Below, in pieces: positions 1 through 32,000 of a DNA stretch of 32,000 nucleotides. The translations under genes were made by a program, and so were the position numbers. The stretch covers positions 660,001 to 692,000 of the forward strand of contig JAXLZO010000001.1 of NCBI GenBank assembly GCA_046350815.1, written 5' to 3'. The notes beneath the pieces were generated by a model. The model was given only the letters and a program-made list of their open reading frames with translations. It was not told where the DNA came from and searched no databases. This stretch comes from Candidatus Saccharimonadota bacterium (GTDB taxonomy: Bacteria; Patescibacteriota; Gracilibacteria; BD1-5; UBA2023). Position 1 is the stretch's first letter. Each line of letters begins with the position of its first letter.

Positions 1-205
1 TGCACGCAATGAGTCCATCGAAGACTTTGTCTTCTGCAGCAGTATAGGAGAGTGGAAGAGTGGCATTTTTGCTTCCCCTCTCTTGCTTCGCTGATGCATT
101 GTTCTTCGCTCGCCACTCCCCAAAGATATCGGCTGTTTTCTGTTTGAGAGCTGATACTGAATCAGTAATTTTGTCTCGAGTATTTCCGAGTGTTCCTTTG
201 TTCAT
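1..205 (-). CDS. hypothetical protein, N-terminal part (continues past the left edge)
   Basis: ATG at 205-203, 9 nt downstream of the stop of the 215-508 ORF. The frame stays open to nt 1 (MNKGTLGNTRDKITDSVSALKQK...). No domain recognised. Confidence 0.35.
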   Translation of the reverse strand, partial: MNKGTLGNTRDKITDSVSALKQKTADIFGEWRAKNNASAKQERGSKNATLPLSYTAAEDKVFDGLIAC

Positions 206-214
206 ATAACTTTA

Positions 215-508
215 TTAAAGACTTTGTAAAAATAATCGAACCTCTTGGATAAAAATATCCTGAATGAGATGATCAACTTCATTTGGTCGTATGCCCTTGA
301 GAAATCCATAACCGTCCACTTCTCCATCTGTTTCGAGAAGTTCCTTATAAATTTCGACCTCATCTGGCGTGAGCTTCTCTGAAAGAATTCGTCCAAATGT
401 AAGTCGTTCGAGTGACTCGATTGTATGAGCAAGGCTTTGCTCAAGTGGATCACCAGAGAGTCCAGTTTTTTGAAGACCGGATCGTAGAGTATTGATAATT
501 TGTTCCAT
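215..508 (-). CDS. hypothetical small protein (97 aa)
   Basis: Intact track ORF with ATG start and TAA stop (215-217). A TTGACA hexamer lies on the minus strand at 565-560 upstream. No family recognised. Confidence 0.55.
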   Translation of the reverse strand: MEQIINTLRSGLQKTGLSGDPLEQSLAHTIESLERLTFGRILSEKLTPDEVEIYKELLETDGEVDGYGFLKGIRPNEVDHLIQDIFIQEVRLFLQSL

Positions 509-582
509 AGCGGTATATAAAATGAATATCTTCTACACGATACTATATAAATAAATATTTGTCAAAATATACGCTTTCGAAA

Positions 583-612
583 CTATAACAACCCTTATAA
601 GGGTTGTTATAG
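583..612. terminator. perfect 30-nt palindrome (13-bp stem, 4-nt loop), likely terminator of the 1082-aa gene
   Basis: CTATAACAACCCTTATAAGGGTTGTTATAG lies 11 nt after the TAA at 624-626 and is flanked by A/T runs on both sides. Confidence 0.6.
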
Positions 613-623
613 TGAAATTTTTT

Positions 624-3600
624 TTAATCCTTTTTTCCGGTGAAAAATTTTTTTAATCCTGTAAGTGCATTTTGGAAGAATCAAGGTTGTTTTTCCTGCT
701 GCACTATCTTCTGCGATACTGAAGCTTTTTTTGGTGTAGGTTGTTGCATTTTTACCTGCTTTTGCTTCGGTGCATACTCTTTATGTCCAAGCTCATTAAT
801 GAATTTTCGTAATGCGAGAATAGCATTTTGACTCTTTTCATTTTCCCAGTCTATATTTTTCAGATATTTCTGAATTCACCCCTCACTCATGAGTATCTTT
901 TTCTCCATTCCTGGAAATACAACTGCTTCATTTGGTGAGTTAAATTGCCCAAGGAACTGATAATACGCCTTCATACGGGTCTCTCAGAGATCTTTTTCTT
1001 GTTGGATTTTATCGTTTTCGTCTTGAAGGATCGCTATTTCAAGGCCTATAAGTTCACTTTGTTGATCTATGGAAAGCTTATTAAAACTCTTAATTCGCCG
1101 AGGATTGCTATCAAAATTTTTCTGTGCACGTTCATTCGCAAGATGAGATATCTCATCATCAGTGTAGAGATTTTTCGTGATTTCTTCCGGTTTGATAGCT
1201 GTTATGAACTCTTCCCATCCAGCATCTGTTGTGATTGCAGATGCAAATTCCGCTTGATGTCTTTTTATGGTGGCAATTCTTTCATCCTCAATTCTTTTTA
1301 ACTCATTCCGATCTTTTTCTTGGATTTTGTAGATGACCGATTCAAGATGATTGCCTTGTCTTTGAGCATCTTCATGATTTCCAAGAACAATAGGCTTAAG
1401 GAGATCGGTAGCTCTCTCTTCAACACTTCTTCCATCATCTTTTCCACTTGGATTGAGAAGGAGTTCTATCGCCTTTATTTGCTCTTCGAGAAGTTTATAC
1501 TGCTCTGGACGACGATCGAGATAGAGATGCTCAAGAAACTTCTTTTTTGGATAGTTCCACCACTCCTTTGCTTTCTCTTTAAAAGTTTTTTCTTCCCCTT
1601 TGTAGAGTTTAATAGCAGGATTGTATTGTTCTAAAAGCATGTATACAAAGTCTCGAGATTGCTCTGTAGTAACATCATTATCACCTTCTTGTTTGATGCG
1701 TGTGCTGTTGATAAGATGGGCAATGTCCTCAGCAATTTGTTCCATCAGTCTTTGTGTATCTAAAAGTACTTCGTTATAAGCATCCTTTCCACTTATCAGT
1801 ACATTCTTATTTCTCGATTTTTTTGAGCTAAATCGTCTTGCTTGAATTTGTCGAAAATTTGCAAGCAAACCATGCATAAAGAGTGTCAGTGAGACAAGTA
1901 ATATAATTTTTGCCGTACGTGGAAGTGATGCAGTGATTGCTGAAGCAAGTTTTCATTCTCTTTTCAAATTATCTATATGTTCAAGAAGGTTGCGAGCCTC
2001 AACTGGTAAGAGAGCAGCATTAATTCCTTGTGTGATGTTATCAGTATTAAGCTCAACTTTGATCGCAACATTAGCATCCAATTTTTGATTATATTTGGTG
2101 CTAAACTTTTTAGCATTTTCTTGAGCTGTATTGAGAAGTTTTGTATGATTTTCCATCACTCACTGCATAATGGCATTTGCCTTTTCAATATTTACAAGAG
2201 CTGTTTTAAGACGAGAGGACATGGAATCAATACCAGTATTGAGTGATGCACGGTTGGTATATTCCTTTTCATCATTTCCAAGAGTAAAACCTCTGTCATT
2301 TTCTTTTGCTATTGCAAGTTGATCTCATGAGTAATCATAGATTTTTTTTAATTGATCTTGACTATAACTCTCCAATATCATTCAGAGAACCTCTACATCA
2401 ATCTGAGCAAAGCTCCGTGGCATATGAAGAGTAGAAAGAGTATCTGAAAAATATTCATCTGCGCTGATAATTTCACCGTGAAGATTTACCTTTGGAAGAA
2501 TATTGAGATTGATTCCTTGATTAATAGTAGTGGTATCGATCGGTTTACCCGCTGGATTTAAGACAGTTTGCTTATGAAGAATTTTTGATTCGAGAGCAGA
2601 GAGACGCCCTGCTCCATTATTACCTGGACGATTATTCTCCGCATCCAGAATTGTTTTCGCTTTCTGAGTAATGTTGCTTTGAATTTGGGAATATTGTGAT
2701 TTCAGCTGTGTTCACATACCACTTTCAGCCGTCTCGTTCATAACAGTTGTGAATACATCCTGTGCTTTTTGATTGTATTGTTGTTGATCAGATACTTTCT
2801 GTATGGAACTACCAGAATCTACTACTAGTCCAAGTAATAACGCAGCGGTCATAGTCCCCCATTTTGTCTTTTTGGTAGGTTGAGATGGGGTATTGTACTC
2901 CATTGGCACATGCAAGGCTGGTTTACCACGTTTCACTCGGATAATATCAGCGATATTTCACCAAAGATTACTTCATTTGCTTGATGCATTGACTCGATTT
3001 CCTTGTGTAATCGCTCACTGTGCAAGAGCGACGCTTGAACCCGCAACGTGTCCGATAGTTGGGTCATTCGGCATAAGATTGGCATTATAGTATCCACCAA
3101 TTCCTGCGGTAGCGGCGTTTGTCAAAATACCTAATGCTTTCATGTCGTTGGCAAGCGCTATATTTGGCTTACGTGTCTGGAGTGCATCTATTTGTGCTTC
3201 TTCGATGCTGAGATCGAGAGAAAACTTTGCAAGCTGTTCAGGTGTATATAATTTCTGGATTTTTTTGGGTTCTTGGATTTCATGTATGGTTGTATCAATG
3301 GTATCTTGTACTATTTCGATGACCTGTTCTTGTGGGAATAATTCAATAAGAGTATCAGAATTGATTCAAGAAAAGACTGAATCTTGTGCGTTCTTTTTGA
3401 GATCGGTCAGTCCCACAGAGGATGACATGGAATCTACAATAATATCACGAATATGATCAAATATTTTTCACTTTGTGGTACTATCCACATCGAATCATGA
3501 AGGTATAGATTCTTCTATGGCTACTAAGAGTGAGCGGCATGATTTATAATCCTTTCATTCGAGACGATTAAAGTCCACTACTTTCCAGCTCAAAATAACC

Positions 3601-3872
3601 GTGCTTACTTTTTGTTGAAGTTCCTGAGCAAGCAGTTCAAAAGGATCTTGTGCATCTACCTGTTCAATAATATCATCAAGGCTGGATGATGTTTGAACTT
3701 CCGGCATAGCCTCAGCAGACTTATTCTTATCTGTCTGTGAGTGAGGTAGGTTGATATTTGATATATTGAATCCAGTAAAACCTGAATGGTTATTAACAGG
3801 TTGAGCATCCTGTCTATAAGATCACTTATTCGCATCATTCATATCGAGAGAGTTTGTAGTAAAAATATACAT
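624..3872 (-). CDS. large orphan membrane protein (1082 aa), function unknown
   Basis: Track fragments 984-1877, 1953-2159 and 2712-2936 plus untracked pieces share one frame. They join across in-frame TGA (e.g. 681, 984, 1953, 2160, 2325, 2712, 2958). The first ATG after the upstream TAA (3903-3905) is at 3872, and the stop is TAA 624-626. Two hydrophobic segments are present (WGTMTAALLLGLVV and IILLVSLTLFMHGLL). No known domain recognised. Confidence 0.7.
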
Positions 3873-5816: not shown

Positions 5817-6326
5817 CTATTTTGTTCTTAGATTTTCCGGGAGAAAAGGTACGACTCGAAGATCATTCACTATGACGATTTCACCATCTTGTTTATCAAG
5901 GTTTATCACACCTGTATTATAGACTCACGCAGTCGGTTTTCCGGTATTCCTGTAGATATCACCTGGATGCACACCAAGAATATTTCCGAGAATACATCGA
6001 ATGGTAAATCCATGAGAGCATATGAGATAGTGTTTGTTCGTGCCACAGATAGCATTGAGAAATAATTTCGTTCGATCATAGATATCCTGAATAGAATCAC
6101 CATTTGGTGGACGGAACTGTCATCGTGATTCATCCATAGTACGCAGCATTTCACTCGTCATGATTTCACTTTCTTTTCTTCATTCCCAGTCGCCATATTA
6201 TCGCTCTTCGATCCTTGTATCGGTGAGAATTTTTTTGGTATCGATTCGAAGGTTTTCACAGATGATTTGCATTGTTTCTTGAGCTCGAAATGCTGGTGAA
6301 CTGATCGCTTCTATATCTTTTCACAT
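5817..6326 (-). pseudogene. histidine phosphatase (PGAM/SixA superfamily) remnant
   Basis: The code-25 frame gives AISSPAFRAQETMQIICENL...IEER*YGDWEG...PPNGDSIQDIYDRT...LICSHGFTIRCILG. There is an in-frame TAA at 6198-6200 and no N-terminal RHG catalytic motif. The 5' end abuts the IS at 6337. The track ORF 5906-6154 is the wrong frame of this region. Confidence 0.7.
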
Positions 6327-6336: not shown

Positions 6337-7143
6337 GGCTCTAGACCAGAAGAAAGTAACTCATATACTCTCTTCTTATGATCCCATACAGCAAAATATC
6401 AGTTCACGAACTTAAAAAGATTATTAAGTGCTTTTGTGTGGATATTGATACCACAAAAACAAGCGAGCTTTTGGGATATAATCGAAAGACGGTCAACCAT
6501 TATTTCTCTATCTTTAGGAAAATAATCTACACGAATCGTATTGAGGCTTTCAAAGAAAAGATAGGTTGAGAAATAGAAGTAGATGAAAGCTATTTCTGAG
6601 CCAAGCGAAAAAGATGATTTGCAGGAAAACTTAAACGATGAAGATGAACCCTCAAACAGCCAGTATTTTGACTCATCAAGAGAAAAGATGAGAATGGAAG
6701 AGTAGAAATATATACAGAGATTATTCCGAATTGCAAAGCTGTAACACTCCGCCCTATAATACAGGGAAAAGTCAGTGCCCCATAATCCAAGGAAAAGTCA
6801 GTCTAGAGAATTCTATCCTATATTCGGATGGCTGGAAAGGATACGATGGTCTCGTAGATGTATGAATCGACAAGCACTTTCGAGTCAACCATGGTACAAG
6901 TGAATTCTCACTTGGGAATGGAATTCACATCAATGGGATTGAGAACTTCTGGAGTTTTACAAAGCGCCGATTGAACAAGTTCAACGGCGTGAAAGTAAAC
7001 TTTCACCTTCATCTCAAAGAATGTGAATGGAGATATACCAAAGAAAGCTTTGAACTTGAGCAGGAACTTCTTACAATGATTAAAATCTTTTATAAAAAAT
7101 CCAGAAAATCTTAGATATTTCTAAAATCTTCTGGTCTAGAGCC
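6337..7143 (+). mobile_element. IS1595-family (ISXO2-like transposase) insertion sequence, copy 1, decayed
   Basis: 17-bp terminal inverted repeats GGCTCTAGACCAGAAGA at 6337-6353 and 7127-7143 (reverse complement) enclose a transposase ORF. No flanking target-site duplication was found. Confidence 0.8.
6378..7114 (+). pseudogene. ISXO2-like DDE transposase, frameshifted
   Basis: The N-terminal part (MIPYSKISVHELKKIIKCFCVD...GEIEVDESYFGAKRKRG, TGA=Gly) ends at TAA 6783-6785. The remainder (SILYSDGWKGYDGL...HINGIENFWSF...LKECEWRY) continues in another frame from 6782 to TAG 7112-7114. The shift coincides with an imperfect 26-bp duplication at 6756-6781 / 6782-6807. Confidence 0.8.
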
Positions 7144-7244: not shown

Positions 7245-8435
7245 TTATATTGGTTTCTTATCTCAACCTCCCAATTCCAAATAATCCACTTTCTCAAGCT
7301 TTGATCCAATCAATCCCTGCATATCTCCGTAGAGACGTGCAGTGTTGTCGATGACACGAGAGAGTTGCTTTTCACGAGCGCTCCACATTTTCTCCATGGC
7401 GCGCTTTTCACGATCGAGATCATCTTTCATGGTAGTGAATGCCTCGATGATATTCTCAATCTTTGCTTTAAATTCCGGAGAGATGAGATAGTTGTAGAGG
7501 ACTTCCATTTTCTCGTCTTTCCCCTTGAGACTGTTGCGAGTCTTGGTGAGCTCGATCATATGAGCTCTGAGTGCAATCGTGAGTGGGAGGACTGATTCAG
7601 AATCGGTAACCCAGATGTCGCGATAGAGTCCAAACCTGTGGATGCCAGTAGGAAGTACCGATGATACAATTACAGAGACTCCAGCATTGACTCGTAGTCG
7701 ATCTTCTTTGAGTTTGTCGACCCAGCTATCACTCCATGCCTTGGTATTTTTGGATTCCCAAGCAATAATGCCGACTGATTGCCCGAAACTATCACGAACT
7801 TCTTGGATGATATCAGCACCCTTGATACCTTTCTCTACATCTGAGATCAGATCGATCGGAAAATTACTCATGAGAAGATCTTTGAGAGCATCTTCTTGAA
7901 TCTCACCTTGGATCTGCATCGATCCTTGGTTTGCTTTACGGTTAGCATCTTCGACAGCTTTTTGGGTCATCTCGAGTTGCTTTTGCATCTCTGCTATACG
8001 CTTGTCATACTCGATCTTCATCTTGTCATTCTCAAGGGATTGCTGTTTTTCTATTTGTACCTTGATCTCAGTCTCCATAGATTTTCGAGCTTCGATAATA
8101 GCTTGTTGCTTCTCGAGCTCCATGTTTTTTGCTTTCATCTCCATTTCTTGTTTTTCTCGGAGAAATTGGAGCTCTTTTACTCGAGCTTCCTCATCGCGTT
8201 TACGGAGTGATTCGAGCTCAACAGTTTGTTTGCGAGCTGACTCCTCCGCATCTTGTTTCGCTTTTTTAACTTCTTCTTGAGCCCACCCAAAAGCTCGCTT
8301 TTTCATATCTGCTTCGATCTCTATTTGAAGCTTTTTTTGAAGTTCTATCTTCATTTCTTCGAGCTCGTGTTTTTGTACGTCAGAGAGTGAGAACTGATGT
8401 CCGCAATTTGGACAAGTAATGGTGTTGGAGTGCAT
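7245..8435 (-). CDS. DUF2130-like protein (zinc-ribbon, coiled coil, C-terminal PD-(D/E)xK-like domain)
   Basis: Uninterrupted 390-codon track ORF. It has an N-terminal CPNCG motif, a long E/K-rich coiled coil, and a C-terminal GADIIQEV...IAWESKNTKAW (D...ExK) motif. The track stop TGA at 7263-7265 is read through under code 25 to TAA 7245-7247, adding 6 aa. The family assignment is from memory of the DUF2130 pattern. Confidence 0.7.
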
Positions 8436-9124: not shown

Positions 9125-10348
9125 ATGACTAGACTTAACATTGTGAATTTTTTCGATCATGAAGAAGAAGCAAAGATATATCTTCAGAAAGGCATACGAA
9201 CCATCTTTAACAAGCAAACTTTGGTTCTCAACGATACTCGTTTGATGATCAAACAGGATATTATTCCTCATATTCCCTTTGTTGGATCATATGATCAGAG
9301 AATTCTTCCGATACTCTCGGATACAACGGTTGTTTTTTCAGATCCCTTTCAGAGAGAATCACATGAATATTTTGTATCTCTTGGATTATCGCAGGATGTT
9401 GAGGTGCTTACTCTCTCGAATAATCATCATATCTCTTTGACGGAAAATATTTTAGCTGATGATTGATTTATTGACCAGCTTCGAGATCGGAATTTTCAGA
9501 ATATAGTCAACTTCTCCGTCAATGAACACGTTGAGCTCTTAGCCGAAAAAATAGGGGCAAAATGCCTTGTATCATCAGAGATATCAGCTATCGCGAATGA
9601 TAAATTGAAGCTCAAACAGTTTCTTGAGCATTCAGGGCTTCCGACTATTGAAGGAGTCTATACAGATGATCCAGAAATTATTACATCATACTTTTGAAGG
9701 AAAGACCATTACTTTTTCAAAGACCCCCAAGGTGTCTCTGGTTATGGTTTCTGGAGTAATCAGAACAATACTCTCGAACAGATACTCTCGGAATACGGAT
9801 GAAAAAATATTATCATTGAACGGGTGATTGAAAAAGAAAGCTCTCCGAGCGTGCAGTTTTTGATCTATGAGGATGCTGGCGAAAAATACGCTTGTATATT
9901 TGGATTTACTGATCAGATTTTGCAAGAATGACGATATTATCTCGGAAATCAATCACCGAGTGTATATGTTGACCACCACTATCTTCGATCTGAATTTATG
10001 CGTCAGTCTGAGATGATCATGCACTATCTCTTTGAGATTGGATATGTTGGGTTTTGATGAATCGATTTTATGGTCGGTGATGGTCAGATCTATACTACCG
10101 AGATCAATGCTCGATTTACCTGAGCAACCTATCCCGCGATTACTAGCTATCTCCTCTCCGACTCTCTCATAACTCCCTGGAAGTATATCACTCGTGAAGG
10201 AGTTGTTCATTCACATGCTGATTATCTTGAGCGATCTATTCAATCTCCTGATGAGTATGGCATGTTCCCACTTTGTATTGCACCTCTTGACGATCATGGG
10301 AGAGCACAGTTGCTCTTTATTGGTGAGTTTGATGAACATGATATATAA
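9125..10348 (+). CDS. ATP-grasp domain protein (407 aa), substrate unknown
   Basis: Track ORF 9101-9466 extends across 6 in-frame TGA. The C-terminal part shows an ATP-grasp pattern (KLKQFLEHSGLPT..., VIEKESSPSVQFLI..., GYVGFGGIDFMVGDGQIYTTEINARFTG). ATG 9125 was chosen over TTG 9101. Stop is TAA 10346-10348. Confidence 0.72.
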
Positions 10349-11249: not shown

Positions 11250-13565
11250 ATGAGATCAAGAAGTAACTCCGGAATGTCCGATCATCATCAAGACTCACAC
11301 GATCACGACGCGCATCATGATGATGCAAATGAGTCCTCATCTGGCTTGGGGAGTATTTTTGTAGAAGAAAAATTACCTGAACCGATTGTGATAGAAGCAA
11401 TTATGCAAGATCTAAAAGAGAGAGAAGATGCGAACGAACCAATTGATATGAATGAGCTTCAAAAGCATCCATCGACTCGATATGCGAGAGTTATGGATGA
11501 GCTCGCATCATCACAGGCGCAGGATTTGGCTCTGGGTCGTGAAGAGTGAGTTGTTCCAATCATCCCAACAAAACTTCATGTCTACAATGATGGTAGAGAG
11601 ATACTGTCTGATCAGGTAGATTCGGATGAAAATATACAGCTTTCTCGAGAGTATCTTGAGAGTTCAGAGTGATTTCTCGTGGATGCACGAACAACCCTTC
11701 CACATACACGAGAGACCATGGATATGTTCGTGCCTTCTCGATCGATCGGTCGAAAAATTCTTCAATCATTGAAAATACCGATCGTAAAAGTAGTCCGACA
11801 AAAATCATTATGGTGATCATATTTTCATCGATTTCTCCTGCTTCTTCTGATTATACATCTTATTGGTGCTTGATTATTTATACTTGGATCATGGTCGATA
11901 TTGTCTCTACGTGACGCAAATACCTACCAACAGAGATCACAATATTCAATTATTGCAAAGTACAGTTTTGGTATTGCTCATCTTTTTCTTGCGCCAGTGG
12001 GACATGCACTCGAATGAATACCACCCACAGAAAGCATAGGGAAAAATTTCACAGCTCTTTTAAGAATTACTCACAACAGTTGAATACTCCTTCGAGAGTG
12101 ATCGCTCTTGGAAGGTGAATATCTTAGTAATTCCTCATCACAGGATCGTGAAGGATGAATCATGAGTATGCTCGTACAAACCTGATGATTGCAAACGGAT
12201 ATCGTTAAAACTTTTGATGGATGATCGGTGCATCTGCACAAGATGATAGAGAAAGCTCATAGTATCAGTGCTGACATGGATATTCTTAAGTGAAATATCG
12301 CTTTTGTAGATGCTACAAAATTACTGACTCTCAAGAGAATGGTTCGTTATTTTGCTGAGGGAGGGGAATATTATCTCTTGCATAAGGATGAAATACTCAC
12401 AGCTATGGGTCGCAATAAGCCGATGAGATATCTCATACTCAATCAAAACCGTGATGAAATCAGAGCAAGTGGGGGGTTCCCATGAAGTGTGATTTTTCTT
12501 GAGATGAATCGATGAGCTATCACAAAACTTGAATCTCGGGATATCTATTTCTATGATTGGAAACTTTATCCATATCAGGTCGAGCCACCTCCATGAATTC
12601 GTGAACTCACTACCAATTATGGACTGCGCGATGCAAACTACTCTCCAGTATTTGCAAAGAACTTTTCAGTGATAAATCAATTTCATGAGCGTGCTGGTTA
12701 TGAATCACTCGATGGTATCGTTGCTATTAATCAAGGAATTATTGAGGAAATTATCGATCACCTTGGTGGTGTGAATTTTCCTGAGATGCAGACGACAATT
12801 ACAAAAGAAAATTTTTCACTCTATATATCGAGTATCGTTGAGGCTCAGATTGGACGAAAAGACTCGGCAAAGGATATACTTTTTGCCTTTCAAAAACATT
12901 TTCTTGATGCTCTTAGATCATCCCCTCATGCGTATTTGGATATCATTGATGAGACACTCAGTGCTATCGATCGTGGTGAAATTCTCGCGGTATGGTGAGA
13001 CGACTCACTCTCTGATTTGAACGCAGCCTTTGAAGGAAATGCTCGAGCAATGAAAGATGGCTCGAACTGGATCTATCCAGTCTATACATCACTCTCAGGC
13101 AACAAATCCGATCGTTATATTCATCGATCTATCCGAATGACATCGAGTTTTGCAGAAAATTGTAATGCATCGAATGAAGTCGCCCTCACTCTCACTCACA
13201 CTCTTGATGATCGGGGTGCAAAAGCAATAGGAGTACTTCAGCAATCACTCGGTCTTACAGGATCTCTCTTGGATGAAAAAGTGCGAATTCAAGGAAGTGG
13301 ATCGAATATTGTGTACACACGCATTCTCGTACCAAAATGATCCAGTTTTACTCAACTTCCACAAGGTGCTACGAGGTTAAATGTAGAGAGTGATACTCCA
13401 TTTGCCGATGCAATTGCTTTCAAAATAGAGACATCACGCTGAAAATCACAAATAGTAAAGTTCGCCTATAAGACCCCATCACTCAAGAGTTGTGATGTAA
13501 CACCGATGATGATACGCCAACCATGACTCAAATCGGTCGAATTTATTTCTTGATTCAAAGACTAA
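11250..13565 (+). CDS. DUF4012 domain-containing membrane-anchored protein (771 aa)
   Basis: Fragments 11115-11549, 12669-12998 and 13017-13340 join in frame 0 across many TGA. It has an N-terminal His/Asp-rich region and one TM segment (FLLLLLIIHLIGAGLFILGSW). The motif YLILNQNRDEIRASGGFPG is typical of DUF4012 as I recall it. The start could instead be ATG 11274. Confidence 0.72.
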
Positions 13566-14029
13566 TGTTTACACTCTTTCCTCTCGATACACTTGACTCC
13601 CTTAAACTTGATCAAAGTATTCTCTCTGATATTGCTCGCATGGCAGATGAGGTGAGCGAATATGCGATGCGATGAATCGTACAACTTGGATTGGTGGATG
13701 ACGATACGATGTCAGCCTTCAATGAACAATATCGTGGAAAATCAGGAACGACAGATGTGCTTTCGTTTCATTACTTCAATGATTTTTCTGGTATTCGAGA
13801 TGATGAGATTGCTGGAGAAGTTGTCATGTCCCTTACGCGCATATCTGAGCAAGCAGTGGAGATATGACATAGCAAAGAAGCAGAGTTTTATCGACTTCTT
13901 ATCCACTCACTTTTGCATCTTGTTGGATATGATCATGAAGATGACACGGATTATCTTGTTATGTTGCCAAAAGAGCGTACAATTATCAGCTTCCTCAATG
14001 AGAAGTACCAACTTTCTATTACGATATAA
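13565..14029 (+). CDS. ybeY: rRNA maturation endoribonuclease YbeY
   Basis: Its ATG overlaps the upstream stop (TAATG). The zinc motif HSLLHLVGYDHEDD is present, plus TDVLSFHY. There are two in-frame TGA. Stop is TAA 14027-14029. Confidence 0.88.
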
Positions 14030-15269: not shown

Positions 15270-17363
15270 TTATGGGCAAGGTTCAAGATGTGTTTGACCA
15301 TCTACTCCATTATTGCGAAATAATCCGGAAATTACAGGACAACTGATACTAATCGCACTAATATCTGGTATAGAATTATAACGAAAAGCACCATTCACCC
15401 ATGATTCTCATCACCATTCTTCTCTATCTCAATCTGAAGTTTGGTAGGATTGGAAAGAAATATTATCAGGAATCACAATAGATGTAAGACTATTATGACT
15501 GAAAGCGTCAGTTTCAACTATAACGTTATTCGTCTCTGGAAATGTCACAGATGTGAGTCCCTTGCCTTCAAAGGATCATCGAGAAATTCTTGTGACAGTA
15601 ACATTGTCAATAGATTCCGGTATAGTAACAACCGATCAACAAGCTGAATTATAAGACAATATCATTCCATTTATATTAATAGAGAAACAAGGTCACCTTG
15701 CTTGTATCGACCATTCCGATTCAGTTCCATTAAAATATATTGTTACTTGTTTATTCTCATTTTCTTGCAGAAGAGCGGCTACTCTATATTCCACCTGATC
15801 GTCATTGTGAGTGATCTGACCACTGGTAACCCATGAACCTCCGTTAATACGCAACTCTCCGCCAACAACAGCAATATCTACAGGAGTAGAGATATGACTC
15901 GCTGTTACCACATTTGAAATAATATCCGTACCAAGAGGAGCGTTGGTCACGCTATATGGCGGTGAAAGTGATGGTGGAATAACAAGAGGTGGTGGAAGTA
16001 TAATCCCTAACTCATGCTGTGACCCGACATAAAAATCAGTTGAACTCGTTGATCCTGTACAACCATAGGGAGTAACATCGAGAAAGCTTGACTGTGGAGT
16101 ACAAGCTATACTCGCATATGGAGTCTCAAATGCTATATTCGATGGCATATTAGTACTGCCAGCAAGAATAGTAACGGGAGATTGATAGTTGCTATCTAGA
16201 ATGAATGTATCAATCACATATCCATCCACCGTATCATCTATGAGTGACCCAGGAGTAATCGTCGTAATAGTCACTCCATAAGTTGCATAGAGAGATATAG
16301 TAAGAGGCCCTATATATCCATAGTAGGTATTCCCCATAATACTATACTCTCCCATAGTAAGTATATGACTTACCGGTCATCCTCCTCCACCTCCAGAATC
16401 ACCACCCCCAGAACCTGATCCACTCCCCGTACCACTATTCATCCCCAAGAGTGCCTTCTCATCAAAGCTTCCATCCTTCAGAGAAAGAAGAGATCAAGTA
16501 GAGATATCCATGGATACATATTCATCAGCTCACTGTGATCCTACCATGATATCAAGCGTACTTGCATCACTCAAAGAGATATCTCTACTTCCTGTACCAC
16601 TCACTCCATTCTGAAGAGGTTGCTTACTTCCCTTGGAGAGAAAGATTCAAAGTCTATCTCCTGCAGAGTAGGGATATCTCGAAGAGAGATCAGTAGTACT
16701 GCTATCGAGAGCATAAGCAGTATCCAAGGTATAAGCTTGAGAGAAGAGAGAAGGAAGATTGGAAGGGAGAGCAGAAGTCAGAGATTGCGAAGCAATCTCT
16801 TGTATCCTTCATCTCCCTGCAATCTCAATACTCCTCTCAAATCTTGGATTCTCAAGGTATGCCATGAACTGAGCTTGGTCGTAGTGTTGATTGACTCGAT
16901 AGGTATAGGGTATATTGTCTTTTGGATCAAAGATCTTATCTGATCCATATCCAAGAGGATTTACCAGAGCAAGACTCATGAATCATTGGTATCCGATGAA
17001 TGATCCACTCACACTAAGAGAGACACTATCTGCTATAGGTGTAGGAAGCTTTCGAAGCTGTGCACTGGTAATTCTCGCACTCTCTGACAATGTCTTAATA
17101 TCACTAATTCTCTTTCCATCTCTTGCTACTGATGACTGATGACTCATCACGACAAACCCTATCACGGATAGTATAGAGAGTATGGTAATAACTACTATGA
17201 GTTCTGTGAGAGTGAAACCACTCTTATTTCAAAAACCCCTCTTCTTTCAAGAAATTCTCTCCTCTCAAGACTCCCTCTCCTCTCAAGACTCCCTCTCCTC
17301 TCAAGAATTCTTCTTCTCTCAAAAGACTCTTTTGAGAAATTGAAACGATGACAGATATCACAT
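15270..17363 (-). CDS. type IV pilin-like (prepilin N-terminal cleavage/methylation motif) protein with C-terminal BspA-type leucine-rich repeats (697 aa)
   Basis: Fragments 15693-16355 and 16983-17165 plus untracked pieces form one frame with 20 in-frame TGA. The class III signal is KSG/FTLTELIVVITILSILSVIGF (about 17222-17150). A Gly/Ser linker lies at 16380-16440. The LRR pattern VTIPESIDNVTVTRISRGSFEGKGLTSVTFPETNNVIVETDAFSHNSLTSIVIP lies within 15270-15690. The only in-frame ATG upstream is at 17363, so the start is uncertain. Stop is TAA 15270-15272. Confidence 0.72.
17241..17330 (-). repeat. 18-bp tandem repeat, about 5 units (2 perfect), inside the annotated 5' end of the pilin-like gene
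   Basis: Plus-strand units are CTCCTCTCAAGACTCCCT at 17259-17276 and 17277-17294, with degenerate units on both sides. Each unit carries one TGA on the coding strand and encodes G-E-E-R-E-S under code 25. Confidence 0.85.
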
Positions 17364-22319: not shown

Positions 22320-23042
22320 TTACCCTTGCTTTCATTGTGATTCAGATGATACAATACCTAACTTCATATTCGCAGGCAGAGCGATATCAATATATTTTGG
22401 ATATTCGAGTTTGAGTCGATGCATCGTCTCGGTGAGTTCTTCGATGGAGGTATCCGATCGCATGCGAGTATTGTAGAGTTTTTCTTCTCCGATTGTACTC
22501 ATAGTGAGCCCTTGGTAGTCATGTCCAGGATAGACACGAGTTGTGTCAGGGAGTGTGTAGAGTTTTGTGATGCTTTGATGGAGTTTCGCAGGAGATCATT
22601 GTTGAAAATCCGTCCGACCGGTCTTGCGAATGAGGAGTGTGTCTCCTGTGAAGATCATATCTTCGATGAGATAGCTCGTACATCCATCAGTATGTCCTGG
22701 AGTAGCAAATGATCGAACATCGATAGACCCTACACGGATAACTTCGTTATCCACAAGCAAGATATCAGGCTGAGCAACTGCCGCACCTATTCCCATGACA
22801 ATCTTTGCTCAGGTTCTCTCACGGAGCACACCACTGCCGGTGATATGATCTGCATGAATATGTGTATCGAATATATGCGTGAGCCTCAGTCAAAGCTCAC
22901 TAATGAGTTTGAGATCGCGATCAACTTGGTCAATAACAGGATCAATAATGAGTGCTGATCAGGTATTTGTATCACCTACGAGATAGCTATAGGTCCAGGT
23001 TTTTTCATCGAAGAGTTGACGAAAGAGAATGTTGGAAGGCAT
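22320..23042 (-). CDS. MBL-fold persulfide dioxygenase (ETHE1/Blh-like), 240 aa
   Basis: N-terminus MPSNILFRQLFDEKTWTYSYLVGD...ALIIDPV, metal motif THIHADHITG, then ATPGHTDGC...FTGDTLLIRKTGRTDFQ. There are four in-frame TGA. Stop is TAA 22320-22322. Confidence 0.88.
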
Positions 23043-23137
23043 AAAAAGAAATGAAAATAAATACATGTGATTGAGAAAAGAGGGGTTTAGTGTGGCCACC
23101 ATATTGTCACACACCATCGTCAAGCTGTTTTCATAGA

Positions 23138-23929
23138 TTACAGAGAGAGAAATTCACGACCAATCATGATGAGCGCCATAGCCATAGTAAATATACCAAA
23201 AGCTTTTGAGAGTATTGTTGTTGGTATTCGTTTTTGGAGTATGAGTCCGAGTATGAGTCCCACGATGGCGAGGCTAATGCTAGTAGTTATCAAGGTTATA
23301 TGCTCGTTCGAAAATTCATGTGGGAGTCAGCTGAGAAACCCTATGCCAGAATTCATCGTAATAATCACGAGAGATGTAGCGACAGCACTACGAAGCGTCA
23401 GTCATTCGAGTGCCATAAGTGCTGGAACGATGAGAAATCCACCACCAGCACCAACCATCCCAGTGATAGCACCAACTATTCATCATTCAAGTGTTGTGAT
23501 GAGATGTTTTTTCCACCCAATGATACGAGCACCTTCTTGAAGATGATTTATTTTTCTCTTACATACTATGGAACATCCGGCAGCAAACATGATCAATCCA
23601 AAGAGGAGTAATACGAGTGTTCATTTTTCAATAAGTCCGATATGATCAGGAATGCGCTCGATGAGGAAATGACGAGAGAAATAGGTAGCGAGAAGAGACG
23701 GTATTCCAAATATGATCACTTTGTCCCAAAGAATCTCTGAGTTTTTGATTTTTGTGAGTGCTCCCACAAAAGCGGTGCTACCAACAATGATAAGGCTATA
23801 GTAGGTTGCTTCGAGAGGATTGATATGAAAGAGATACACCAGTATCGGTACGGTCAGGATCGCTCCTCATCCTCCGACGAGTCCGACTACCATACCCATG
23901 ATGATCATCGAGAAGAAAGGAAAAATCAT
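23138..23929 (-). CDS. TauE/SafE family (DUF81) anion exporter-like membrane protein, 263 aa
   Basis: MIFPFFSMIIMGMVVGLVGGGGAILTVPILVY with a UGA-encoded Gly at 23867-23869. A second repeat reads GMVGAGGGFLIVPAL. It is hydrophobic throughout. Stop is TAA 23138-23140. Confidence 0.82.
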
Positions 23930-23942: not shown

Positions 23943-24257
23943 TTACATATGTTTTTGTAGGAGTGATACGAGATCAGTGACAGAATGCACGCCGGAAGTT
24001 CGCTCGATGATCACACCATCTTTGAAGAGAATCATTGTAGGAATACTTCGTATTGCAAGTTGTTGCGCAATATTTGGTTCATTATCGACATTGTGCTTCA
24101 TGATACGAGCTCGATCTCCGATTTGTTTTGCGAGATCTTCGAGAATCGGTCACATCATTTGGCATGGGCCACACCATGGAGCCCAGAAATCTACGAGTAC
24201 AAGACCTTGTGATGTATCACGAGCGAAGTTAGAATCAGTGGATGTAAGAACAGACAT
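23943..24257 (-). CDS. trxA: thioredoxin (104 aa)
   Basis: [16 protein letters not shown] active-site motif and ...[13 protein letters not shown]. One in-frame TGA. Stop is TAA 23943-23945. Confidence 0.9.
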
Positions 24258-24288: not shown

Positions 24289-24633
24289 TTATGCTAAATA
24301 GGATATTTGAAATGCTTGAGTAATCTCGAGGATTTTCGACCGAGTTTCATAGAGGGATTTGATGCTCCCCGCAACGTTGGTTGCTTGTTTCCCATTTTGT
24401 GCGAGCCATGCACACGCTTGCCCACTGCGAGCTCCGGTACGACAGAGGATGTAAACCTCTTTTTTGAAATCAATCTCTTGATACCGATCAGGGAATTGGG
24501 AAATTGGAATGAGTTTTGCTTGAGGGATTCGGATCATATCCCATTCATTCTGTTCTCGCACATCGATGAGCTCAATGTTTGGATTTTTTTGAAGAATTTG
24601 CTCGAGCTGCATTGCGGATATTTCTTGGTACAT
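24289..24633 (-). CDS. single-domain rhodanese sulfurtransferase (114 aa)
   Basis: Intact track ORF. The active-site loop is ILCRTGARS (CxxxxR). Stop is TAA 24289-24291. Confidence 0.85.
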
Positions 24634-24642: not shown

Positions 24643-25068
24643 TTATGGGATAAACTTTTTTGTAAGGAACATGCTGGTAAGCATACTCACAAGGAAAATC
24701 AGGGTGAAACTCTGATGGAATATAATAGCACCTACAGCTGGTCCGGGACAGAGACCGCCGAGTCACCACCCGATACCAAAGAGTATTGATCCAATAACTA
24801 GTTTCTTGTCAATTATTCCTTTTCTCTCCCATGAGAAATACCACTTTTCCGCAAAGAATGGCTTTGGATGTTTCTCGAGGATAAAGTGTCCGAGGAGTGA
24901 TATACTGAGCGCGCCTATCATGACAAAGATGAGGGTTGGATCCCAAGTGCCAAATATATCAAAAAATCATCGTACGCGATCGGGTGAGAGCATATCCGAG
25001 TAAGCAAGTCCATATCCGAAGAGCCCACCAGATAGGAGCGAAAGGAGAGCAGATGTGAGGTGTTTCAT
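24643..25068 (-). CDS. YeeE/YedE family sulfur-transport membrane protein, second half-size paralogue (141 aa)
   Basis: MKHLTSALLSLLSGGLFGYGLAYSDMLSPDRVRGFFD...FGIGWGLGGLCPGPA. It starts 3 nt after the upstream stop. Stop is TAA 24643-24645. Confidence 0.78.
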
Positions 25069-25071: not shown

Positions 25072-25482
25072 CTACAAGAAGTTATGAAGCGTGACAGTAG
25101 CGATACCACTCGACACAAAGAGAAGTGTTGCGATGATCGATCTCTGAGAGAGTCGACCGATGCCACAGACAGCGTGCCCACTTGTGCAACCATTTGCGAG
25201 CGTTATACCGATACCTACGAGTATTCCACTTATGATTGCTATGGTAGACGATGTTTCCGTATTTGAGGGGATATATGCACTATGGTTGAGAGTATAGAGC
25301 CCGACTCCGACGGGTATACCGAGGAGAAATGTATAGCGCCATATGCCGTGTTCACCGCCAGGAAGGACTCACTTGAGGATGCCTGATATGCCCATGACAC
25401 GCCCGAGTCAGCCAGACATAATAAGTGCTGCTATACCGATGAGTATACCACCGATGAGAGCATGAATATAGAGAGGATTCAT
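25072..25482 (-). CDS. YeeE/YedE family sulfur-transport membrane protein, first half-size paralogue (136 aa)
   Basis: MNPLYIHALIGGILIGIAALIMSGGLGRVMGISG...LANGCTSGHAVCGIGRLS. Stop is TAG 25072-25074. Confidence 0.78.
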
Positions 25483-25487
25483 AAATT

Positions 25488-25784
25488 TTAACATTGGTTA
25501 TTGCAATAAATAGTGGCGAGAGATTTCAGCATCTGAGATATACGGTTATCTTGGATGCGGTAGTACACAAAGATGCCATCTTTACGACTCTCGATGAGTC
25601 ATTCTTGACGCATCTTAGCGAGGAATTGTGAGAGCTGTGATTGAGATATGCTACAGAATTTCTCAAGATCGCCGACACTCATTTCTCCTTCAGAGAGTTT
25701 ACAGAGGATGAGAAGCCGCTTTGGATGAGCGAGGAGCTTGAGAATCTCTGCTACTTCGGAGGCTTTTTGTTCGAGTTCATTCAT
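25488..25784 (-). CDS. ArsR/SmtB-family transcriptional regulator, BigR/SqrR-like (98 aa)
   Basis: Track ORF 25599-25784 continues across TGA 25599 to TAA 25488-25490. The wHTH pattern is ILKLLAHPKRLLILCKLSEGEMSVGDL...SQSQLSQFLAKMRQEGLI. Cys28 lies in helix 2, with Cys94/Cys98 near the C-terminus. It is the first gene of the sulfur operon. Confidence 0.85.
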
Positions 25785-25904: not shown

Positions 25905-25938
25905 AAAACTTCCCAATGTCTAGGCATTGGGAAGTTTT
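25905..25938. terminator. 14-bp-stem hairpin overlapping the stop codon of the 330-aa gene
   Basis: AAAACTTCCCAATG-tctagg-CATTGGGAAGTTTT. The TAG stop (25920-25922) sits in the loop, and the U-tract is weak. Confidence 0.4.
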
Positions 25939-26912
25939 AATTGGCTTATTTGTAAGAGCTTTTCTGAAATGAGGCTAAATTGTTCAATTTGTTGTTCTAG
26001 TCTTTGATTTTGTAATTGAGCAACTCTGATAAGTGTCTCATCCCCTGAGAGAGTATGAGAAACAATAAATTGATTATACTGGAGAAAGATAATATATTTT
26101 TGTATTGTTTGTTGAAGAGAAGTATTTATTCGTATAAGTTGTTCATGGAGGTATGAGTATTCTTTACGCAAGTGTCATATTAGTTGATCTCGCATAATCT
26201 CTTCAGTTGGTTTTTCGATTCTTCATAAGTAGTGCACTCTTACTCAAGATAAGTTTTCTCTGGAGTTTTGAAGATTCTGTAGTAGAGCTATATTAAAAAT
26301 ATAGAGAACTCGATCAATATTTTTTACTGATTTACATGCACTATTAATGAGTTTTACATGTTCGACTACACTGAATAGCTCAAAATTTGAATCTATAAAA
26401 AAATAAAAAAGTTGTTTATGACAATATTCTAAGCGGGATATATAGTATGTAGTCCATTCTTTAATAAAAAGCAATCGAAAAGACATGAGATAGTATGATG
26501 CAAATAATCACCATAGAATAAGTGCTATACCAAGTGGTCATCCAAATATCACAAGATAAATTCATAGTCAAAATAGTAAAAATATTAGGAAAAATACAAG
26601 AGATTGAAAACGAATGTTTTCTGATTCATTCGCATTTATGACACCACGGAACAACCTGCAGCAGAAAACAAGCATTATTACTAAGGGGAGTACGGGGAGT
26701 GTTAGTAATCACAATAACACATCAGTAACAAGAAGGTTATTAATATGTTTTACTGGAAATATAGATACTATGAGATTAGATAAACTCATTAGTCGTTTTT
26801 TATTTTCACAAAACGAGCAAAATTCTTGAATAAAACCTATATTTTGACCTTCAATTTTTTTAAGAATTTCATCAATATTAGGTATGGTATATCTTTCTTC
26901 CGATTCTACCAT
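25920..26912 (-). CDS. orphan membrane protein with C-terminal coiled coil (330 aa)
   Basis: Track ORFs 26709-26912, 26244-26486 and 25920-26171 are in one frame, joined across TGA (26709, 26568, 26562, 26538, 26508, 26244, 26223, 26175). Central hydrophobic segments include LVIMLVFCC and LVFFLIFLLFGLGIYLVIFGGPLGIALILWGLF. No family recognised. Confidence 0.6.
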
Positions 26913-27874: not shown

Positions 27875-27958
27875 TGGTGCCCAGAAAGGGATTTGAACCC
27901 TCACACCTTGCGGCATACGCGTCTGAGACGTACGTGTCTACCATTCCACCACCTGGGC
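27875..27958 (-). tRNA. tRNA-Leu (anticodon CAG), class II with long variable arm, CCA encoded
   Basis: The minus strand reads GCCCAGG-TG-GTGGAATGGTAGACAC-G-TACGT-CTCAGAC-GCGTA-TGCCGCAAGGTGT-GAGGG-TTCAAAT-CCCTT-TCTGGGC-ACCA. All four stems pair, with G-U pairs allowed. Confidence 0.9.
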
Positions 27959-28182: not shown

Positions 28183-29241
28183 ATGGATTTGCCACGAATG
28201 GTTCTCGATTGATTGAAATGATCCTATGTTGTTTTTATGACGAATACATCATTGACACTCTATCCTCTCTGAACGGGTTTGATCAATGATACCTGGATTA
28301 CCAATACTCAAGAGAATAACAAACGCTATGTTGTACAACGACTCAATACAAAGGTATTTCCATCATATCAGTCCATAGAGAACAATCTTCGTTTAGCAAA
28401 AGAAATACTCTCCGATAAAGACTATCTTCTTTTTCTTCCTATTGAAAATACGAACGGAAATCTCCATACAACTATTGCTGATGAGATATATCGTGTGACT
28501 GAGTTTTCTGAGGGAAGTCAGGTATATGATGCCCCTCCGAGCGACCAACATATTTACGAGGCTGCAAAGGCATTTGCAACTTTTACCCGCTATCTTGAGC
28601 GAGAAAGGGTAGGGGAGTTTGAGGAGACGATCGTAGATTTTCATAATCTTACGAAGAGATTTGCTGATCTGGAAAAGGCATGGGAATCTTGTGAAGATCA
28701 GGAGAGGCGATCACAAGCGGAGCCCCTCATGAATTTTGCTCTTGCTAATTGTTGGATTGTTGATTTATATACTCGGTCAGTAAAATCTATTCCGAAACGG
28801 ATATATCATCACGATACAAAAGTAAATAATATTCTCTTCAAGACATGAACAACACAGGTAATCGCCCCGATTGATCTTGATACGATTATGCCTGGATATA
28901 TTTTCTCAGATCTTGGCGATATGATCTGGTCGATTGCTGCTTGAGTCGATCACAGTAATCTTGATCTTACATCCATTGTAATTGATTGATCTCGATACGA
29001 CGCTATTATGAAAGGTTACCAAGAAGGAATTTCAGAAGCCTTAACATCCGAAGAGAAATCACTCCTTCCTTATGCCGGACTTGTTATGTCCTACATGCTC
29101 GGTTTACGATTTTTGGCAGATTATCTTATGGGTGATAGTTATTTTAAGGTATCGTATATATGAGAAAATCTTGATCGAACAACAGCACAATTTCGAGTGG
29201 CGAAGCTTCTCATCGATGATGGTTTCACTCCTATTTGTTAG
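28183..29241 (+). CDS. aminoglycoside-phosphotransferase-fold (APH / NahK-like) kinase, 352 aa
   Basis: Track ORF 28279-28848 extends both ways. Motifs: N-terminal YPLGNGLINDTWIT, catalytic RIYHHDTKVNNILF, and metal-binding APIDLDT. The start at ATG 28183 is 16 nt after a likely TSS below TATAAT (28155-28160), with alternatives at 28198 and 28237. Stop is TAG 29239-29241. Confidence 0.78.
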
Positions 29242-29243
29242 AT

Positions 29244-29295: not shown

Positions 29296-29535
29296 ATGGC
29301 ATGAGGTGGATGACATGGAGGTCATGAGAAAGGTCATGGTGGCTGAGGCGGTGGAGGAAGTGGCGGATGAGTCATGAAATGATTTGCTATCACTGGGGCA
29401 CTCTGAGCTACTGCGGTTGTGTGAGGTGCTGCGGCTCTTGGTGGACTCTTTCTCTGACCAATTGGTGCCATTGTTGGTGGTGTTGGAGCTGCGGTTGCTG
29501 GCATAATGTGATGAAAAGCGTTGATAAAAAAATAA
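29296..29535 (+). CDS. glycine-rich microprotein (79 aa) with His/Gly-rich N-terminus and glycine-zipper hydrophobic C-terminus
   Basis: Open only under code 25, with 10 in-frame TGA: MAGGGGHGGHEKGHGGGGGGGSGGGVMKGFAITGALGATAVVGGAAALGGLFLGPIGAIVGGVGAAVAGIMGGKALIKK. Stop is TAA 29533-29535. It is bracketed by a promoter candidate and a strong terminator. The track shows only antisense ORFs here. Confidence 0.6.
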
Positions 29536-29553
29536 CATTTGTGTAAATATTTG

Positions 29554-29583
29554 GTGGAGAAATTCGTTTTCTCCACTTTTTTT
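29554..29583 (+). terminator. rho-independent terminator after the glycine-rich ORF
   Basis: GTGGAGAA-attcgtt-TTCTCCAC followed by T7. Confidence 0.8.
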
Positions 29584-29611
29584 GTATACTGAATTTCTAC
29601 CCATCTTTTCT

Positions 29612-30526
29612 ATGCATTTTCTCAATCGAATCATATTTGCCACATTCTTTTTTCTTTGTTCTACAGTGAGTTCTGTATCAGCTCTCGAGATTATACCGAT
29701 CTCATCAGAGAATGGCGTCCTACTCTCGAGTGTCCGTGATGACAAGTATGCAAAAAATTCAAAGGTATACCTTGTTGAAACGAATCTCGCGAGTGGTGCA
29801 ACGATTCGCTCGAGTGCTACTCTCGTTGACGATCAAAATGCTCAATCGCCAGGATTTATGCTTCGGCCACTTGTCTCATCTGTAACATCAAAGGCACCTA
29901 TCGCAGCATCGCTATGTGACCCAAAGGATAAAATAGTTAATGCATGAGTGCAAGTAGCGTCACATCTTGATCTTATGAGCACATCGAGAACTCCATTTGC
30001 ACTCTTGAATGGACAGTTCTTCGGGAATTATTATGCACTCCAGCCAGGTTATACTTCTCGGCTTGCTTTTGGTGTATTTCAAGATGGTGATGTCCTTTCA
30101 CTTGGATATGGTCGCATCGAGGCATATCGCAAGAAGATACTGACAATCTCATCAAAATGAGCTCGTATTCAATGATACAAGCTCTCAAATGCCTATGCTC
30201 TCAAATGAGAAACAGGCTCACTCGCGATCGTCGGTCTTCATCCACTCGCGAATAAAGATTCACGATCAGAAAGTAATCTTGGTCGTGTCTATGTTGGTGT
30301 TGGTGGTGCGAAGATTCGTGGCGGATGATCTTCAAAGATATACTTTCTCGTTGCGACTGGCATAGAGGAACGAGAAGCTTTTGCTATCCTTCGCAAAGCA
30401 TGAGCTCGTGAGACAATGATGCTCGATGGGGGATGATCGACGCAGATCTGGGCAGCCGGACAGTCTCGTATATCCTCATCTCGTCCTATTCCGCACGCAA
30501 TAGCTCTCTTCTCAGCTAATCGTTAG
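29612..30526 (+). CDS. secreted phosphodiester glycosidase family protein (DUF2233/NAGPA-like), 304 aa
   Basis: Track ORFs 29582-29947 and 29948-30160 continue across TGA. The signal peptide is MHFLNRIIFATFFFLCSTVSSVSA. C-terminal ...TMMLDGGGSTQIW matches the family motif as I recall it. Stop is TAG 30524-30526. Confidence 0.68.
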
Positions 30527-32000
30527 AAGAATTTTTCATGGATTCTTCGTACTGCTTCATATATTTTTCAAAGATGGCGGAAATTTGATATTCCCGGGTT
30601 GTTATCTTTTGATGCTTACCTGTTTCTATTCTCTCCTTTAAGTTGTTTCTCTCATCCTCGGATGCAATCCAAAGAAAGAAAAATATTTTTTCGTAGGCTT
30701 TCTCATTCTCCATCTGTTTATCAGCAGTCATATTACGAAGATGAAGATACCAGTTTTTTGATTTTTCTTGTTTTGTTAAAAGAGTCTCAAAAAGTCCAAT
30801 CAATCATCAAATTCTTTGAAAATCTCACTTATTTACATGAAGTTTTCGGTCGAGATGAGATGCACTCTTCCCTCCAAGAGTATGGGTATAAGAATTATTT
30901 ATACTCGCTAGCTCCCGCAAGGATAATCTTGTTGTATTTTTGTCTTTTATTTCTGATCCTATGTATTGAATTTTTGTGGGCATATCCATATCTTTGTCAT
31001 AATTTCCACCGTATAATTCATCATAATATATAGTATCCACATCTCAGATAGATGCTTTCCCCCAATCAATTATATATGGTGTGTACTCTAAATTTTCTGT
31101 TTGTTGAAACATGATATTTCGAGGATTGCCCGATAAATCCCTGTGATGTAGTGATATTTTTTGTAAATCCTCTATAAAGAGCCGAATTTTTGATCGAATT
31201 TGATATTTTTGTACATCTGTGAAAAGTTCGATTTTTGAAAGATATTTTTTATAGATACCTTCAATAGCTGGGTAAACTTTTCTTCATCCGTCAAAATAAT
31301 ACATTCACGGATTCTCATTAATAATACCTTGTTTGCAAAGTTCCAGTAGTATAAGATTGACTTGATCTTCCGCATGTGAGTCATTTTCAAAATGTATATT
31401 TCCATCCCGGTTTATAAGATATGAGAAAATGGTTTCAAAATTTGGCAGGTCCCGTAATAAGAACTGCTCTGCAATTTTCTCCAGTGTCATACAATAGAGG
31501 GTTTTTCCATTGACGCGCTCCATTACAAGATAGCCATCTATATTATCTTCGTCATTCTTTTGATTAAAGGAATCTATGAGATAAGGTACCTTTATGCCAG
31601 AAATACTTTCTCTGGATACATCGTAAGCAAGCTGATGCATACTTTCCTCATTGTCCTTAGAGCTTCCTGGGCGTTTCTTTGCGACGACAACCATCATACC
31701 ATTGAGATCGATGTAATAAATCTCTCATTCTTGGCCACGAGTAACAGGAGTCGTATCGGCAATTTGGGAGAGAACTTGCTTGCGAAGAAGTATTTTGAAT
31801 GCTTCTTCTTGATCTGCTCATGTAAGTACATGTTTCAATACATCCATCTTCTCTTGAGAAGAGAGTTCATTTAAAAGTGCTCCAACTTTCGCACCAATGC
31901 CTTGAATCGTATCTTGTGAACGAGCAGAAACTTCTTGATCGAAGTTTGCTTGTACTTTTGTTAATGGAGGGGTAGTACGAGGGTGATGTGGGATCGATAT
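30516..32000 (-). CDS. Ser/Thr protein-kinase-like protein with C-terminal extension (N-terminus beyond the right edge)
   Basis: Track ORFs 31305-31697, 30825-31040 and 30516-30803 are in one frame joined across TGA, and the frame stays open to nt 32000. Motifs: Gly-loop/Lys region GQEGEIYYIDLNGMMVVVAKK, catalytic loop LHHRDLSGNPRNIMF, and DFG-equivalent IIDWGKA. Stop is TAG 30516-30518, overlapping the convergent glycosidase gene by 11 nt. Confidence 0.7.

Follow-up and report, generated by a model that had tools for sequence, protein, structure and literature searches.

UGA as a glycine codon in a 32-kb fragment very probably from the recoded Gracilibacteria/Absconditabacteria clade

UGA is an ordinary glycine codon in the 32-kb stretch of DNA analyzed here (the window; 39% GC), where it supplies about one-quarter of all glycine codons. 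Tryptophan is encoded by UGG alone, and CGA and CGG are still arginine codons; hence the code is plain translation table 25. The window is very probably (about 97%) a chromosomal fragment of an uncultured member of the Patescibacteria belonging to the UGA-recoded Gracilibacteria/Absconditabacteria clade (GTDB class JAEDAM01), in which it most likely falls on the Gracilibacteria (BD1-5) side. Glycine rather than tryptophan as the meaning of UGA is supported by three independent lines of sequence evidence, namely, alignment to homologues, codon exchange with relatives, and glycine content. The recoding itself is not new: UGA has been known as a glycine codon in this clade since 2013, and the window adds a further member. 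Table 25 (the Candidate Division SR1 and Gracilibacteria code) was reportedly introduced through the work of Campbell et al. and Rinke et al. in 2013. The code is established for Gracilibacteria/Absconditabacteria clades (PMC8629427; PMC4032931; bioRxiv 10.64898/2026.05.24.727570), proteomics in BD1-5 confirmed UGA as glycine (Hanke et al. 2014; PMC4032931), and the gTranslate preprint gives table 25 for GTDB class JAEDAM01, with the orders BD1-5 and Absconditabacterales.

Across 8,289 codons in 23 genes on both strands, 146 in-frame TGA codons (1.8%) and no in-frame TAA or TAG were counted, in agreement with a first-pass annotation, made from the sequence without database searches, that had described the whole window as recoded. 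TGA was present in 22 of the 23 genes, the exception being the gene for rhodanese. Under table 11 the same genes broke into 169 pieces, the longest of which covered on average 45% of its gene, and the largest stop-to-stop open reading frame (ORF) was 394 amino acids (aa) but 1,092 aa when TGA was read as sense, so that the short, fragmentary standard-code ORFs noted earlier were recovered. In the 18 genes tallied, TGA made up 142 of 559 glycine codons (25%); glycine content was a normal 7.2% when TGA was counted and 5.4% when it was not. Gene ends were UAA and UAG only (12 TAA and 6 TAG in 18 genes), as had been claimed for every gene, but this is partly true by construction, because these same two stops were used to define the ORFs.

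Long ORFs were rejected as evidence by themselves. TAA and TAG, like their reverse complements, occur in every frame of the window at about half the expected frequency (observed/expected, 0.47 for TAA and 0.53 for TAG), and the TA dinucleotide occurs at 0.70 of expectation. This depletion yields spurious long ORFs once TGA is read as sense, and spurious overlapping ORFs of ≥100 aa covered the window 2.9 times. Naive ORF calling with table 25 would overpredict overlapping genes in such sequence. Because ORF length is weak evidence under these conditions, homology was relied on for the codon assignment.

TGA codons at the seven positions cited in the first pass (4458, 4488, 4626, 5013, 14641, and 18018 on the plus strand and 23867, which reads TCA on the plus strand and TGA on the minus strand) were all present and in frame. 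The DAHP synthase gene (aroG) contained 20 GGN and 8 TGA glycine codons, exactly the 8 of 28 counted before. When the protein was aligned to 117 standard-code homologues, the TGA columns held G in 106, 116, 117, 117, 117, and 70 of the 117 sequences; a seventh held G in every one of the 37 sequences without a gap there, and the eighth held P, V, or L, for a total of seven glycine columns out of eight. The earlier placement of four aroG TGA codons on conserved glycines was confirmed, and the PDB AroF/AroG alignment likewise put TGA on conserved glycine. In the TauE permease, TGA lay on glycine columns at three of six positions, including the invariant GGGG motif to which 23867 had been assigned, where the column was G in 150 of 150 TauE homologues. 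Five of the 11 TGA columns in the ABC-F ATPase were glycine in both Escherichia coli YheS and YbiT, and a sixth was glycine in YbiT only. Those five included the second glycine of both ABC signature motifs, at 18018, as had been proposed, and likewise at 18858. In methionine aminopeptidase (MetAP), TGA 14641 aligned to the glycine of E. coli Map 'kpGMTFTIEPM', that is, the glycine preceding MxFTxEPM expected from the first pass. One TGA of the persulfide dioxygenase corresponded to glycine in both top PDB relatives (4ysb and BpPRF), and two more did so in BpPRF only. The alignments to PDB proteins were full-length and ran straight across the TGA codons.

Pooled over aroG and TauE, glycine-majority columns were occupied by 9 of 13 TGA codons and 32 of 45 GGN codons (P = 1.0) and by 17 of 557 other codons (Fisher P = 1e-10). 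None of the TGA columns was tryptophan-majority in standard-code homologues, the placement that the first-pass annotation had named as one that would speak against glycine. The three aroG TGG codons lay on columns that were 99.7% tryptophan, which bears out the statement that tryptophan is still TGG.

Codon exchange was examined with two syntenic relatives, L003 (a 69.5-kb contig from JGI metagenome 3300056789) and L124 (a 311-kb contig of a metagenome-assembled genome [MAG], NCBI GCA_020632315.1, JACKFT010000002.1, 91798-112184; proteins P0391-P0404), both about 78 to 96% identical to the window in nucleotide sequence (78 to 94% for L124). Counting reliably aligned codons only, TGA exchanged with GGN 13 times relative to L003 and 16 times relative to L124 (29 in total) and never with TGG. 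TGA sites common to the window and the relative numbered 31 (L003) and 46 (L124), TGG was kept at 23 of 24 and 22 of 23 sites (45 of 47 in total), and the proteins were 74 to 97% identical across the TGA codons. TGA 7263, the one TGA near a C terminus (that of the DUF2130 protein), was GGA in L003. A tryptophan reading would require dozens of Trp-Gly replacements in proteins of 90 to 97% identity, whereas under the glycine reading these changes are silent.

Table 4, used by Mycoplasmatales, insect endosymbionts, and some Eggerthellaceae, resembles the code of the window in that UGA is sense, release factor 2 would be dispensable, and ORF structure is the same; because of this shared ORF structure, gene callers fall back on table 4. 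The two codes differ in the amino acid, and UGA in the window lies on glycine columns and never on tryptophan columns. Tryptophan does appear at TGA positions in proteins of close relatives (P0001 to P0003 and P0121), an artifact of translation with table 4 rather than evidence, and it falls there on columns that are 100% glycine elsewhere. The homologue columns and the codon exchanges together refute UGA = Trp of the Mycoplasma/endosymbiont type, to which we attach hardly any probability.

The same data bear on whether the in-frame TGAs are true stops, in pseudogenes or an error-ridden assembly. Table-11 ORFs are short, and two IS1595 copies in the window are really frameshifted, as this explanation would have it. 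However, 146 in-frame TGAs stand against not one in-frame TAA or TAG, the TGA sites are conserved in both relatives within proteins of high identity, and full-length PDB alignments pass through them. The absence of in-frame TAA and TAG and the conservation across TGAs refute this explanation, the probability of which is negligible.

An extended code, with UGA as glycine plus CGA and/or CGG as tryptophan, was also considered. Reassignment of CGA/CGG to tryptophan has been proposed for Absconditabacteria and some Gracilibacteria (Shulgina and Eddy 2021, PMC8629427), a system that shares UGA = Gly and the wider clade with the window, and CGG is rare in the window (22 per 10,000 codons). In contrast, CGA is the commonest arginine codon there (132 per 10,000 codons), and relative to L003 and L124 both CGA and CGG exchanged with other arginine codons, plus single cases of CAA, CAT, and AAT, and never with TGG, although the CGG sample was small (17 sites). 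On codon usage and these exchanges the extension was rejected; it is very improbable. The window behaves as plain table 25, with which it shares UGA as glycine, UGG as tryptophan, apparently the stops UAA and UAG, low-to-moderate GC content, a Patescibacteria origin, and a tRNA-Gly(UCA) in the lineage. No difference from that system was detectable, and within it the window makes heavy use of UGA (25% of glycine codons).

As judged from the lineage and the literature, UGA would be decoded by a dedicated tRNA-Gly with anticodon UCA, which glycyl-tRNA synthetase would charge through glycine acceptor-stem identity (G1:C72, C2:G71, G3:C70, and U73). Release factor 2 would have been lost, leaving UGA without a competitor, and release factor 1 would end translation at UAA and UAG. 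One genome per species was scanned for tRNA-like patterns having a UCA anticodon and an imposed glycine acceptor identity (GCGG...CCGC-U73). At least 68 low-GC loci (within L005 to L122) labeled SR1, Absconditabacteria, Gracilibacteria, 'Peribacteria,' or Patescibacteria carried a conserved 74-nucleotide (nt) tRNA(UCA). Its sequence was nearly invariant beyond the glycine-type ends imposed by the pattern, and the same 74-mer occurred in at least 19 loci. Position 37, in the anticodon loop CUUCAGC, is G instead of A, and the gene is usually clustered with those for tRNA-Tyr, -Ala, -Arg, -Glu, and -Leu(UAA), the order of which varies a little. At the three such loci that were examined (L014, L044, and L058), ORFs were short under table 11 and longer with TGA as sense. 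In the parent genome of the window, a tRNA(UCA) close to GCGGATATGATGTAATTGGTGTAGCATAGCAGACTTCAGCTCTGTTCGTACGGGTTCGAGTCCCGTTATCCGCT is expected, probably beside the tRNA-Tyr/Ala/Arg/Glu/Leu(UAA) genes. Among the tblastn matches listed for window proteins against 120 tRNA loci, there were no Patescibacteria homologues, a result that is uninformative for placement. No release-factor domain was present among the Pfam matches of window proteins, which cover 32 kb.

The tRNA data also address whether UGA is selenocysteine or is read through in a context-dependent manner. ARAGORN calls the tRNA(UCA) genes 'tRNA-SeC,' in keeping with the former. Against this, the 74-nt tRNA(UCA) of the lineage has the standard cloverleaf form and a glycine acceptor stem and is not a long-arm tRNA-Sec, the TGA codons align to glycine and not to cysteine or selenocysteine, and neither process is plausible at 1.8% of codons in 22 of 23 genes. 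The probability left to them is vanishingly small.

Outside the recoded clade, tRNA-Gly-like genes with anticodon UCA were found in at least nine genomes (L004, L008, L019, L027, L033, L062, L063, L086, and L114), from Anaerolineaceae, Akkermansia, Archangium, Woesearchaeota, Gemmatimonadales, Streptococcus, Thalassotalea, an alphaproteobacterium, and a standard-code patescibacterium. Table-11 ORFs at these loci are long. The UCA gene of L033 and that of L063 lie inside a Thr/Tyr/Thr tRNA cluster, the usual place of tRNA-Gly(UCC)/glyT, and in L114 it is adjacent to tRNA-Tyr only. Natural suppression of UGA could account for such tRNAs, as could errors in the sequences.

The first-pass annotation had placed the window in Gracilibacteria or Absconditabacteria (SR1). 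Among the best 120 ABC-F matches, all 14 that were organism-named belonged to "Candidatus Gracilibacteria"/Altimarinota (46 to 52% identity) and none was named SR1, so that the origin holds and leans toward Gracilibacteria (BD1-5). Proteins of named Gracilibacteria come no closer than about 50% identity, so the source family or genus is probably undescribed. An exact 49-mer taken from the window had no match in the collection of one genome per species, and an identical DUF2130 protein was present on two short contigs only.

Several points weigh against the table 25 assignment and this placement. No tRNA(UCA) was found in the window or in L001 to L003 and L124 to L128, so the decoding machinery of the source genome (tRNA and prfB status) is something we infer rather than observe, and the sequence alone leaves room for UGA occasionally terminating translation. 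In distant homologues, some 40% of TGA columns hold a residue other than glycine; GGN codons show the same proportion, so this is what variable positions should give. The nearest public genomes are labeled 'Peribacteria' and 'Peregrinibacteria' at NCBI, names formally of standard-code lineages. These labels are read here as label noise, because 'Peribacteria'-labeled MAGs also carry the canonical tRNA-Gly(UCA), and NCBI labels are taken as unreliable for this clade. The gTranslate preprint reports further mismatches between NCBI taxonomy and translation table in the JAEDAM01 clade; for GCA_020632315, nothing was found in the literature or in the gTranslate supplement.

Taken at face value, the filing of the closest public genomes as Peribacteria/Peregrinibacteria with table 11 and the identity of only about 50% between conserved proteins and those of named Gracilibacteria would point to a deep branch of the recoded clade that has yet to be described, or even to a lineage outside its two recognized orders (BD1-5 and Absconditabacterales). 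This is unlikely; if true, UGA = Gly would extend over a wider phylogenetic range, and dating the reassignment would become easier. There is also only a very slight chance that the fragment comes from a phage or another mobile element using code 25 rather than from host chromosome. Phages of Gracilibacteria/Absconditabacteria are discussed in the literature (PMC10746230), and along with several hypothetical proteins the window holds two insertion sequence remnants. Domains of phage structure or replication were not found in the window, its content is that of a housekeeping and metabolic region (MetAP, YbeY, ABC-F, DAHP synthase, tRNA-Leu, and a sulfur operon), and it is syntenic within the 311-kb MAG contig and the 69.5-kb metagenome contig, all of which favors a chromosomal fragment.

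That the window needs table 25 has consequences that are practical more than conceptual. Table 4 would put tryptophan at invariant glycines, including those in catalytic and nucleotide-binding motifs. The warning that table-11 annotation would be badly wrong was borne out by the NCBI annotation of L124 ('Candidatus Peribacteria bacterium'), which consists of 30 genes with a mean of about 90 aa and about 40% coding density over 20 kb. Mistranslation is already present in public data: in the 90% cluster of the ABC-F protein, full-length JGI/ENA entries produced with table 4 (tryptophan at TGA sites) stand together with fragments of 62 to 128 aa, which end or start at or next to TGA positions of the window. 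Three of these fragments are NCBI table-11 entries labeled 'Candidatus Peregrinibacteria' or 'Candidatus Peribacteria.' Protein clusters of the lineage thus mix tryptophan-mistranslated full-length entries with TGA-ended fragments.

Pfam scans of ORFs called with TGA as sense revealed ordinary bacterial genes, densely packed on both strands, as follows.

624..3872, minus strand: hypothetical protein of 1,082 aa, no Pfam match, 16 in-frame TGA codons
4299..5414, plus strand: DAHP synthase (AroG/AroF type, PF00793), 8 in-frame TGA codons (4458, 4488, 4626, 4719, 5013, 5079, 5145, and 5253)
5817-6161, minus strand: probably truncated histidine phosphatase ORF, His_Phos_1 match to model positions 101-192 of 194 (C-terminal half only)
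6360..7114, plus strand: IS1595-family transposase, frameshifted, with TGA at the glycine positions of 'DESYFG.KRKRG'
7245..8435, minus strand: DUF2130 protein, one TGA (7263), 6 codons before the TAA stop
9125..10348, plus strand: ATP-grasp protein, 7 TGA codons
10406..11176, plus strand: class-I glutamine amidotransferase, 3 TGA codons
11106..13565, plus strand: DUF4012 protein (start uncertain), 21 TGA codons, many of them GGA in relatives
13523..14029, plus strand: YbeY endoribonuclease (start uncertain), 2 TGA codons
14035..14811, plus strand: methionine aminopeptidase, TGA at 14041, 14089, and 14641
15270..17363, minus strand: pilin-like protein, N_methyl motif and an LRR_5 match below the Pfam cutoff, 19 TGA codons
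17541..19244, plus strand: ABC-F ATPase, 11 TGA codons
20460..21746, minus strand: membrane protein of 428 aa, 2 TGA codons
22320..25784, minus strand: sulfur/persulfide operon of seven genes with Pfam/PDB matches, listed in the next seven lines
25488-25784, minus strand: ArsR
25072-25494, minus strand: Sulf_transp (YeeE/YedE-like transporter half)
24643-25068, minus strand: DUF6691 (YeeE/YedE-like transporter half)
24289-24633, minus strand: rhodanese, no TGA
23943-24257, minus strand: thioredoxin
23138-23929, minus strand: TauE exporter/permease, TGA 23867 in the GGGG motif
22320-23117, minus strand: ETHE1-like persulfide dioxygenase (PDB 4ysb, 3e-73)
25920..26912, minus strand: hypothetical membrane protein, 8 TGA versus 6 GGN codons
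26969..27733, minus strand: second IS1595-family transposase, degraded, spread across three frames
27875..27958, minus strand: tRNA-Leu(CAG), the only tRNA of the window
28183..29241, plus strand: APH-family phosphotransferase, 7 TGA codons
29612..30526, plus strand: NAGPA-domain protein, 7 TGA codons
30516..32000, minus strand: APH-like kinase running off the window, 8 TGA codons

Neither rRNA nor ribosomal proteins were found in the 32-kb window, and Rfam scans of the window at gathering and relaxed thresholds returned nothing beyond the tRNA-Leu. The seemingly empty stretch at 24.2 to 25.9 kb was considered as RNA and rejected, since five small genes lie there. The sulfur/persulfide operon was 91 to 94% conserved in L124.

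Patescibacteria genomes do not usually carry a DAHP synthase of the AroG/AroF type. The best homologues of this one among standard-code organisms were from Proteobacteria (Pseudomonas and Polaromonas; 55 to 59% identity), which suggests that the gene was horizontally acquired; it now carries eight UGA glycine codons, several at invariant glycines. The two IS1595-family transposase genes were both broken by frameshifts, and the histidine phosphatase gene at 5817-6161 was probably truncated near the IS1595 insertion. Because TGA sits at glycine positions of a conserved motif, the IS1595 element is adapted to code 25. Copies of about 68% identity were also present in L124. The genes of probable foreign origin (the proteobacterial-type DAHP synthase and the IS1595 transposases) have gained UGA glycine codons, a buildup consistent with the code acting as a one-way barrier to gene export.

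The pilin-like gene was absent from L003, in which the interval between MetAP and ABC-F holds only a 139-aa gene that does not match it. In the window, the pilin-like gene contains an 18-nt unit repeated six times in tandem (17214-17322), most units opening with an in-frame TGA. The repeat encodes the hexapeptides G-E-E-R-E-S and G-K-K-R-G-F and lies just upstream of the prepilin motif 'GFTLTELIV.'

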